Sequence record: OV876907
Strand: one strand, 5' to 3'
DNA from: Escherichia phage UGJNEcP3
DNA length: 64,000 nt
Both the position numbers and the translations under genes were made by a program. The notes under the pieces were generated by a model. That model saw only the letters and a list, made by a program, of their open reading frames with translations, was not told the DNA's origin and made no database searches. Positions 22,789 through 59,506 of the stretch are shown in pieces. Position 1 is the stretch's first letter; each line of letters begins with the position of its first letter.

Positions 22789-22818
22789 TTTGTTTTCTCC
22801 TCATTAGTTGGTAGGTCT

Positions 22819-30372: not shown

Positions 30373-30404
30373 TTTATTTTCCTCACTCATTAGTTGATAG
30401 GTCT

Positions 30405-49061: not shown

Positions 49062-49202
49062 TTACCATACTAGTGAATGAATAGCCATAATAACATCGGA
49101 AATAAAAAGCACAACTTGGATAAGTCCGAACATTACTCCATAATACAGTGCTACTAATAAAGCAGCAAGGGCTACTGAGTAGCCCAAGATTTTCTTAATC
49201 AT
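49062..49202 (-). CDS. small hydrophobic peptide, 46 aa (absent from ORF track)
   Basis: ATG overlaps the stop of the upstream 53 aa ORF; TAA lies 4 nt before the gene 52 ATG; predicted membrane helix. Confidence 0.4.
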   Translation of the reverse strand: MIKKILGYSVALAALLVALYYGVMFGLIQVVLFISDVIMAIHSLVW

Positions 49203-49356: not shown

Positions 49357-49443
49357 ATTTTCCTCATTAGCGTCCGAAGACGCCTTTAGTTTTAAGATTG
49401 TTACGATAGAACTGCATCACATGCTCGTTATGGAAATTACTCA

Positions 49444-49893
49444 TTAGTATGCCTGCAGAATGAATTTAAAGTTATCAGCCAACATGCGGTTCATTTCTTC
49501 CAGTGTCTGGAGGTCGGAACTATGATTGCGGGTGAAAGCCATTGCAATTTGACCCTTACCAAAACCGGTGGTCAGAGGTTTCATCTTAGAAGCTGGTACA
49601 TAAAGAACTTCATACACAACACCGTTCACTGCCATGGTGCGAGCTGATTGAGAACGTTTCTTACGAATGTTAGCCACGATGCCATCAAGACCTTGGGCCG
49701 AACGTTGATTACCGACATAAAAACGAGCAGCTACGACACGAGAATCAGCTCCACCTTTAACAAAGAAGTAGAAGCCTGGCTGAGCAGAGATTTCTTTAGA
49801 AGGTTTACCATTTTGGTATTCACCGTTCTTAACATAAGCAACAGTAGTAGCACCAGCAGACAGAACGTTACGGCGAGTCATATAAGTATTCAT
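49444..49893 (-). CDS. ndd: nucleoid disruption protein Ndd
   Basis: 149 aa; [10 protein letters not shown]...[15 protein letters not shown]...AFTRNH...[20 protein letters not shown] is near-identical to recalled T4 Ndd. Confidence 0.9.
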
Positions 49894-49970: not shown

Positions 49971-50339
49971 CTATTTTTGTAGCTGTTCTAAAATAAATCC
50001 GCTCGTATAAAAAGAAGCATTATAAACCTTGTTCAGCGGGTTCAAAGCCTGTCCGTAAGTATCACGTAGTTCTTTGATAACATTTTCATAGCTTACATAA
50101 TAACCACTATGATAATACGGGTCCATACTCATACGAAATTTAATAAACCGATAAAATCCTGTTTCTGGGTCTTGAACGAAAACGAAATCGGCACCCATCA
50201 TAATTTTTGAATCTACGCCAGGAATCATACTTTGATTGAATGCCACCGATGCATCCTGAAGGCTGAGTTGTTTAAAGAACATTACCTTAGCATTACCAAA
50301 AAAGATTTTAGACATGATAATTTCCTTATTCAGCGTCAA
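49971..50339 (-). CDS. hypothetical protein
   Basis: 122 aa ORF upstream of ndd. Confidence 0.4.
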   Translation of the reverse strand: MTLNKEIIMSKIFFGNAKVMFFKQLSLQDASVAFNQSMIPGVDSKIMMGADFVFVQDPETGFYRFIKFRMSMDPYYHSGYYVSYENVIKELRDTYGQALNPLNKVYNASFYTSGFILEQLQK

Positions 50340-50538
50340 CAGAAATAGCCATCAGTTCATCAACAGTAAGACACTGTACACTAGGTCCTACACAAAAGCG
50401 CTTAGTTGAATCATAAAGGTCCGTGGCATTAACAGGTTGTAATTCGGTCCCAACTTGCAAAGGAGAAATGCGAATCAGTTGTTGACCGTTATGTAATACA
50501 AAGCTCTCGCCGACTACCACATCTTTAAAAAGTTTCAT
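50326..50538 (-). CDS. hypothetical protein (start re-set to the ATG with GAGGAAAATATT context)
   Basis: The track M1 at 50580 overlaps the upstream small ORF. Confidence 0.4.
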   Translation of the reverse strand: MKLFKDVVVGESFVLHNGQQLIRISPLQVGTELQPVNATDLYDSTKRFCVGPSVQCLTVDELMAISVDAE

Positions 50539-50548
50539 AATATTTTCC

Positions 50549-50659
50549 TCAGAAGTTAAAGAATACACGTACATGGTCAATCATAAAAACGATTGGGAAA
50601 ATGCTCAATACCATTAACAACACAAACATGTTCCAAATTGCTTTAAGTAAGTTTTTCAT
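50549..50659 (-). CDS. small hydrophobic peptide, 36 aa (absent from ORF track)
   Basis: MKNLLKAIWNMFVLLMVLSIFPIVFMIDHVRVFFNF; first gene after promoter module at about 50671-50700. Confidence 0.35.
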   Translation of the reverse strand: MKNLLKAIWNMFVLLMVLSIFPIVFMIDHVRVFFNF

Positions 50660-50804
50660 AATCATCTCCATTAGTTGATAGGTCTATAGTATCATGATTA
50701 ATGGAGATGTATACCGATTTATGCCAATTTCCACAACAATAAACTAAAACATACGCAAATCACTGGGATACAGGCCATCCAAATAAGGCACCACGTTTTG
50801 CTAC

Positions 50805-51071
50805 TCAAAACACCACCTCTTTTATCTCAATCAATCCCCTGTACAATGCAGTGCGGAGGTCATAAAGAATATCTATGCCGTCAACATTATCCAGTTTTCC
50901 ATCAATAAGCTTTTCTAAATCTTCCTTTGATGCGATTAAAGGACGGAGAAATTTACATTCAGAAAGAGATAACTCTGTAGTAACATCATCACCTTCACCT
51001 GACGCGTCATACATAGCGGCAACAACCATGCCTGTAACTTTGTGTTTAGCGTAATATAATTTGATATCCAT
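50805..51071 (-). CDS. hypothetical acidic protein (start re-set; track M1 lies in the promoter leader)
   Basis: ATG at 51071 preceded by GAGGAGAACAAA; upstream promoter module. Confidence 0.4.
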   Translation of the reverse strand: MDIKLYYAKHKVTGMVVAAMYDASGEGDDVTTELSLSECKFLRPLIASKEDLEKLIDGKLDNVDGIDILYDLRTALYRGLIEIKEVVF

Positions 51072-51127
51072 TTTGTTCTCCTCATTAGTTGATAGGAAGA
51101 TAGTAACACCATCCATGGCATTATAAC

Positions 51128-59433: not shown

Positions 59434-59506
59434 TTTATTTTCCTCTCATTTGTTGATAGGGTAATAGTATCACACTACTACCCTGTTGTATACCACTTTT
59501 TAAACT

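Follow-up and report, generated by a model that had tools for sequence, protein, structure and literature searches.

The question raised by this locus was whether a very short hydrophobic frame, lying among the small genes of a phage genome, is a gene at all and, if so, which one. The window (the whole stretch of DNA analysed, 64,000 nucleotides of Escherichia phage UGJNEcP3, record OV876907) carries an ATG at 50659-50657 of the minus strand, which opens the frame MKNLLKAIWNMFVLLMVLSIFPIVFMIDHVRVFFNF, and a TGA stop codon closing it at 50551-50549. According to the sequence and the list of open reading frames, the 36 aa hydrophobic frame was present exactly as a preliminary description of this DNA had given it. 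The surrounding 1 kb was 100% identical to Escherichia phage UGJNEcP4 (OV877765.1; Straboviridae, Tevenvirinae, Dhakavirus) and 90-97% identical to numerous other Dhakavirus genomes. All of the genes of the region are on the minus strand; rIIB and denB are followed by small ORFs, then by ndd, further small ORFs and gene 52 (topoisomerase), which is identical to the order in T4. In the annotated neighbourhoods of UGJNEcP4, QL01, T4 and Kanagawavirus, the position of the gene (rIIB - denB - ... - ndd.4 - ... - ndd - ... - gene 52, on one strand) was kept. The features discussed below are collected in Table 1.

Table 1. Features of the ndd.4 locus, with positions in the window.
Feature	Position	Strand	Remarks
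ndd.6-like hydrophobic ORF, 29 aa, TTG start	50719..50808	-	phrog_8851 (T4 ndd.6 family), E 2.6e-16; ends 4 nt before the -35 element
-35 element GTATACA of a T4-type early (sigma-70) promoter	50708..50714	-	aligns with GTTTACA in T4, in relatives and in 4 other modules of the window
Extended -10 element TGaTACTAT	50686..50694	-	16-nt spacer from the -35 element
Conserved 5' leader CTATCAACTAATGGAG, including the Shine-Dalgarno GGAG	50664..50681	-	5 copies in the window; conserved in relatives
In-frame upstream ATGs (50671, 50665), alternative 40-aa call	50660..50671	-	probably untranslated leader; encloses the Shine-Dalgarno
ndd.4 ortholog CDS	50549..50659	-	36 aa and TGA stop; predicted single-pass N-in/C-out inner-membrane peptide
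Stop/start junction TGAGGAAAATATTATG	50536..50551	-	TGA of ndd.4 overlaps the GAGG Shine-Dalgarno of the next cistron
Downstream cistron, ndd.1 homolog, 70 aa	50326..50538	-	'ndd.1 gene product' in QL01; phrog_2183, E 4.4e-29

The frame had been taken to be unannotated, and this did not hold, since the UGJNEcP4 record (OV877765.1) contains a 111-nt CDS, UGJNECP4_00272, at exactly 50549..50659. The label in sister phages is "Ndd.4 predicted inner membrane protein", and the homolog is called (putative) inner membrane protein or Ndd.4 in QL01, 04086, dhabil, UPEC07 and others. When the peptide was compared with the T4 genome (AF158101.6) by tblastn, the match lay under the annotated ndd.4 CDS (AAD42620.1), with 61.1% identity across 36/36 residues and an E value of 1e-6; UniProt P39249 is listed for T4 Ndd.4 (PMC9697503 Table S2). 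A match to phrog_3098 was also obtained (E 3.6e-21), in which residues 1-36 of the peptide fell on positions 1-36 of the 37 of the profile. The Pfam family PF26889.1 was found precomputed on two close homologs (P0001 and P0002), and the search of the peptide against our copies of Pfam and NCBIfam returned no family, the Pfam copy apparently being without the PF26889 model. In one record, OM386655.1 (phage vB_EcoM_ESCO10), two labels are likely wrong: the ndd.4 homolog is called 'DNA-directed DNA polymerase', and the name 'immunity to superinfection membrane protein' is attached to the ndd.6-like region.

The resemblance to T4 concerned both the peptide and its surroundings. The two peptides are collinear over their full length, with 36-38 aa from a conserved ATG and a predicted single transmembrane helix; their C-terminal tails differ (HVRVFFNF versus VLNVYFGFM). 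Both genes occupy the denB/ndd slot, behind a promoter, leader and Shine-Dalgarno sequence and ahead of a TGAGGAAAATAT junction. The composition of the slot differs, however: in T4, the promoter is separated from ndd.6 by ndd.5, and ndd.4 from ndd.1 by ndd.3/2a/2, whereas in the UGJNEcP4-type locus the ndd.1 homolog comes directly after ndd.4. On sequence evidence, 50549..50659 is identified as the Dhakavirus ortholog of phage T4 ndd.4, a gene already known and already annotated.

Homologs were collected by tblastn on phage records, by scanning viral contigs for a DNA pattern and by exhaustive HMMER searching. Of the 596 phage records in which tblastn found the peptide, all but one covered at least 80% of its length; the matches spanned phages of Escherichia, Shigella, Yersinia, Salmonella, Enterobacter, Citrobacter and Edwardsiella. 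The frame was intact in 595 records and no disruption was seen in relatives, so that the conservation check that had been proposed for it came out in its favour. In the pattern scan, 7 of the 22 loci were chance matches without a homolog and were discarded. The HMMER search, covering 1.84 billion representative proteins, returned four clusters of 37-38 aa, one over-extended call (P0008, 80 aa, crossing the promoter) and one spurious repeat protein (P0003, a repetitive hydrophobic protein of 970 aa which was the best match, in 14 stretches); the last two were rejected. Since the genuine matches were just peptides of T4-like phages, the family is confined to enterobacterial T4-like phages. With the 40-aa form of the peptide as query, a homologous-protein search gave just 2 clusters.

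Selection on the frame was estimated from 12 distinct CDS of five lineages, in whose alignment the first 36 codons were free of gaps. Read in the annotated frame, these sequences gave a dN/dS of 0.06-0.22; for the two alternative frames the value was about 1-3. Among 13 distinct family members, 13 of the 36 positions were invariant (M1, K2, K6, I8, W9, N10, V17, L18, I20, P22, V24, I27 and D28).

The frame had been presented as the first cistron downstream of an early promoter, and by homology this was borne out, since it lies behind a T4-type promoter and a conserved leader (Table 1). The consensus of T4-type early promoters has been given as TTTACW-N17-TAYWAT (PMC4122927). In T4 itself, GTTTACA-N17-TACTAT followed by the same leader is found upstream of ndd.4, and relatives carried stronger elements (TTTACA, TATTAT, TATAAT) at unchanged positions. 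The promoter of the window matched 4 of the 6 positions in each hexamer, i.e., 8 of 12 overall, which is under the threshold of 9 of a generic sigma-70 scan. Going by the spacing only, transcription would start near 50680-50678. The T4 ndd.4 transcript belongs to the early class by RNA-seq (PMC9697503 Table S2). A T4 transcription-start map was sought in the literature and none was found; the promoter assignment therefore draws on homology and on this 'early' class only.

The leader motif occurs in 5 copies in the window versus 0.06 expected, each with -35 and -10 elements and located just ahead of an ATG. These copies, all on the minus strand, were at 22797-22814, 30383-30400, 50664-50681, 51078-51095 and 59442-59459, and their common layout consists of GT(T/A)TACA, 16-17 nt, TA(C/G)TAT, then CTATCAACTAATGAGGAG, then 6-9 nt and the ATG, a layout in keeping with the T4-type early-promoter consensus. 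It has been described that ndd.4/.5 of T4 are exchanged for other ORFs in phage PST by means of the PeSL (promoter-early stem-loop) modules of T4-like phages (PMC4122927). The position of ndd.4 behind an early-promoter/leader module recurring 5 times in the window resembles these cassettes; unlike them, the ndd.4 promoter has no adjoining terminator-like stem-loop. No terminator-like site was detected by a simple scan of the minus strand between 50680 and 50810, a stretch which is occupied by the ndd.6-like coding frame.

The start codon of the gene had to be decided between two calls, as annotated lengths vary among records: 36 aa in UGJNEcP4, QL01 and dhabil, 40 aa in 04086 and FB, and 42 aa in the T4 reference. 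The preliminary description had placed the start at ATG 50659, and a GGAG (50669-50666) lies 6 nt ahead of this codon. This downstream ATG, with GGAG(G) 6-7 nt before it, was invariant across the relatives compared. The longer product (MEMIMKNLL...) would start at ATG 50671, an in-frame codon with in-frame counterparts in T4 and in Kanagawavirus, and would agree with the longer annotations listed above. Nevertheless, five close T4 relatives have ACG in place of the upstream ATG, three Dhakavirus-related contigs have CTG, and in one further locus (L018) the codon is absent. Furthermore, the sole Shine-Dalgarno sequence (GGAG) would lie inside the extension, and the inferred transcript would have just about 8 nt before ATG 50671. 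The upstream ATG also falls within the leader motif CTATCAACTAATG(A)GGAG, which occurs out of frame before the gene at 51071; since 'AATG(A)GGAG' is out of frame in this sibling leader (51078-51095), the upstream ATG can be assigned to the leader motif. The 40-aa product was therefore considered quite unlikely.

Because the upstream ATG is not conserved and the downstream ATG with its GGAG(G) is invariant, the 36-aa start at ATG 50659 is regarded as the best-supported choice. For the same reason, the start annotated in the T4 reference is probably 5 codons too long: in locus L004, taken from the T4 record AF158101.6, ndd.4 is annotated at locus positions 1986-2114 (42 aa) and takes in the Shine-Dalgarno sequence, versus 2001-2114 (37 aa) from the conserved start.

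At the other end of the frame, the gap between the TGA of ndd.4 and ATG 50538 comprised 10 nt (GGAAAATATT). The preliminary description had counted 11 nt to the next gene, a figure that agrees with the 11 positions from the last base of the stop to the A of ATG 50538, the spacer itself being 10 nt. It had also regarded the next open reading frame as over-extended, and this was correct as well: the mechanical frame 50326..50580 (TTG, 84 aa) overlaps the 3' end of the peptide gene, and the UGJNEcP4 record starts the downstream gene at ATG 50538. In a comparison of homologous junctions (L004, L005, L009, L013, L019 and L024), TGAGGAAAATAT(T)ATG was conserved across genera though the gene following it varied (ndd.1-like, ndd.3 and several unrelated ORFs). 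Such a pattern suggests gene swapping right at the ribosome-binding-site junction. The preservation of the junction even where the downstream gene differs argues that it is part of the ndd.4 module, and it may be a recombination joint.

Two features of this arrangement, the overlap of the stop codon with the next Shine-Dalgarno sequence within a junction kept across genera and the position of the frame as first cistron behind the promoter, would also be expected if the frame were a mere translated leader, loading ribosomes for the downstream cistron and giving a peptide without function. Against this stand the purifying selection at the amino-acid level (dN/dS given above), the residues that are invariant across genera, and the fact that the peptide stays while the downstream gene changes. 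A translated leader of this kind was thus judged very unlikely, and a functional peptide is the preferred reading. Finally, a frame that is open by chance in AT-rich DNA between genes, or an untranslated non-coding RNA or regulatory element, for which the shortness of the frame, the failure of mass spectrometry to find the T4 protein and the T4 knockdown without a fitness effect might speak, has a negligible probability and is effectively refuted by the comparative data: the frame is intact at constant length in 595 records from several genera, substitutions are codon-periodic, the Shine-Dalgarno and ATG are conserved, the mRNA folded no better than shuffled sequence (z = -0.07), and an Rfam search of either strand gave no match. 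Protein coding is the sole supported reading of the frame, and 50549..50659 is, as judged from these comparisons, a genuine small hydrophobic protein gene.

The membrane topology of the peptide was addressed by prediction, as the preliminary description had proposed, and one transmembrane helix, N-in/C-out, was predicted. The hydrophobic core covered residues 7-27, with a mean Kyte-Doolittle value of 2.43. It is flanked on the N-terminal side by two or three lysines (charge +2/+3) and on the C-terminal side by a net neutral segment, so that by the positive-inside rule the N-terminus would be inside and the C-terminus outside, with a predicted aromatic periplasmic tail of 8-10 residues. AlphaFold2 modelled one continuous helix over residues 2-35 (pLDDT 93), and the summed free energy of insertion was marginally favourable (-0.7 kcal/mol, unweighted). 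The invariant residues were not significantly grouped on one face of the helix: 8 of the 11 within residues 6-28 fell in a 100-degree arc (permutation p = 0.10).

Additionally, other very small genes were observed near ndd.4. The ndd.6-like ORF MSSKTWCLIWMACIPVICVCFSLLLWKLA upstream of the promoter is cysteine-rich; its TTG overlaps the stop codon of the upstream gene and has GAGGTG upstream, and in some Dhakaviruses an ATG replaces the TTG at the same start. Its pN/pS was 0.08-0.19 in close lineages. This ORF is genuinely unannotated, with no CDS in UGJNEcP4, QL01 or dhabil. Directly after ndd, at 49367..49444 (minus strand), is a 25-aa ORF whose product is identical to T4 Stp except that it lacks the last of the 26 residues; Stp activates the PrrC anticodon nuclease of the host. 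This ORF is unannotated in the UGJNEcP4 record. At 49062..49202 (minus strand), a 46-aa homolog of gp52.1 (DUF7396, E 1.5e-22; phrog_3595), nearly identical to T4 gp52.1, is annotated in QL01 and absent from the UGJNEcP4 record. Several tiny neighbours (ndd.6-like, stp and 52.1) are missing from Dhakavirus annotations. The T4 genes ndd.6, ndd.3, ac, 52.1 and stp share with ndd.4 a length of 25-55 codons, early expression, dispensability, a mostly hydrophobic product and a place in this hyperplastic region, but they belong to separate PHROGs and their sequence relationship to Ndd.4 is undetectable. According to the T4 annotation, a phenotype is known among these tiny genes only for Stp and Ac.

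With regard to expression, T4 Ndd.4 was undetected by shotgun mass spectrometry, and likewise ndd.2 through ndd.6 (PMC9697503 Table S2); a hydrophobic peptide of 4 kDa would be expected to escape standard proteomics. Knockdown of T4 ndd.4 by CRISPRi-ART left fitness on the laboratory host unimpaired (score 'Not Fit'; PMC11879866 supplement). Taken as a whole, the ndd.4 ortholog is very probably a real early gene of the non-essential rIIB-denB-ndd-gene 52 region, coding for an inner-membrane peptide with a presumed accessory role.

In the most likely course of events, the host sigma-70 RNA polymerase would start an early transcript at GTATACA-16 nt-TGaTACTAT, about 20 nt upstream of the gene, and ribosomes would bind GGAG and initiate at ATG 50659 to produce the 36-aa peptide. 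Its hydrophobic helix (residues about 7-27) would enter the inner membrane, leaving the lysine-rich N-terminus in the cytoplasm and the short aromatic C-terminal tail in the periplasm. The terminating ribosomes would probably be handed over to the ndd.1 homolog through the overlap of stop codon and Shine-Dalgarno sequence, a coupling that we infer from the junction. Once in the membrane, Ndd.4 may serve as a dispensable accessory modulator which, as early takeover of the host proceeds, binds a host (or phage) protein of the inner membrane by a helix-helix contact; candidates for the contacting residues are the invariant W9, N10, P22 and D28.

The strength of purifying selection on a gene that is nevertheless dispensable points to a conditional accessory role of Ndd.4. 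A more specific proposal, advanced here only tentatively, is that Ndd.4 is a microprotein with a specific target in the host inner membrane, which might counteract a defence or exclusion system acting at the membrane, or else a transporter or a protease, and be needed only on particular hosts. Such a target would explain strong purifying selection despite dispensability on laboratory E. coli. Bacteria contain small inner-membrane regulators, such as AcrZ, MgrB and KdpF, of about 30-50 aa with a single transmembrane helix, and proteins of this type are presumed to act by binding a larger membrane protein. They are like Ndd.4 in size and in having a single helix, but without sequence similarity to it, so that the comparison is one of analogy only.

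The value of the locus as a discovery is small, as ndd.4 entered the catalogue of T4 genes decades ago and already has a PHROG and a Pfam family of its own. The gains are curatorial: the start codon of the family is corrected (36-38 aa, not 40-42 aa) and neighbouring microgenes are found to be missing from annotation. Ndd.4 is one of the well-conserved early membrane microproteins that T4-like phages encode and, given that its knockdown on the laboratory host is without phenotype, screens for host range or anti-defence activity could reasonably include it.
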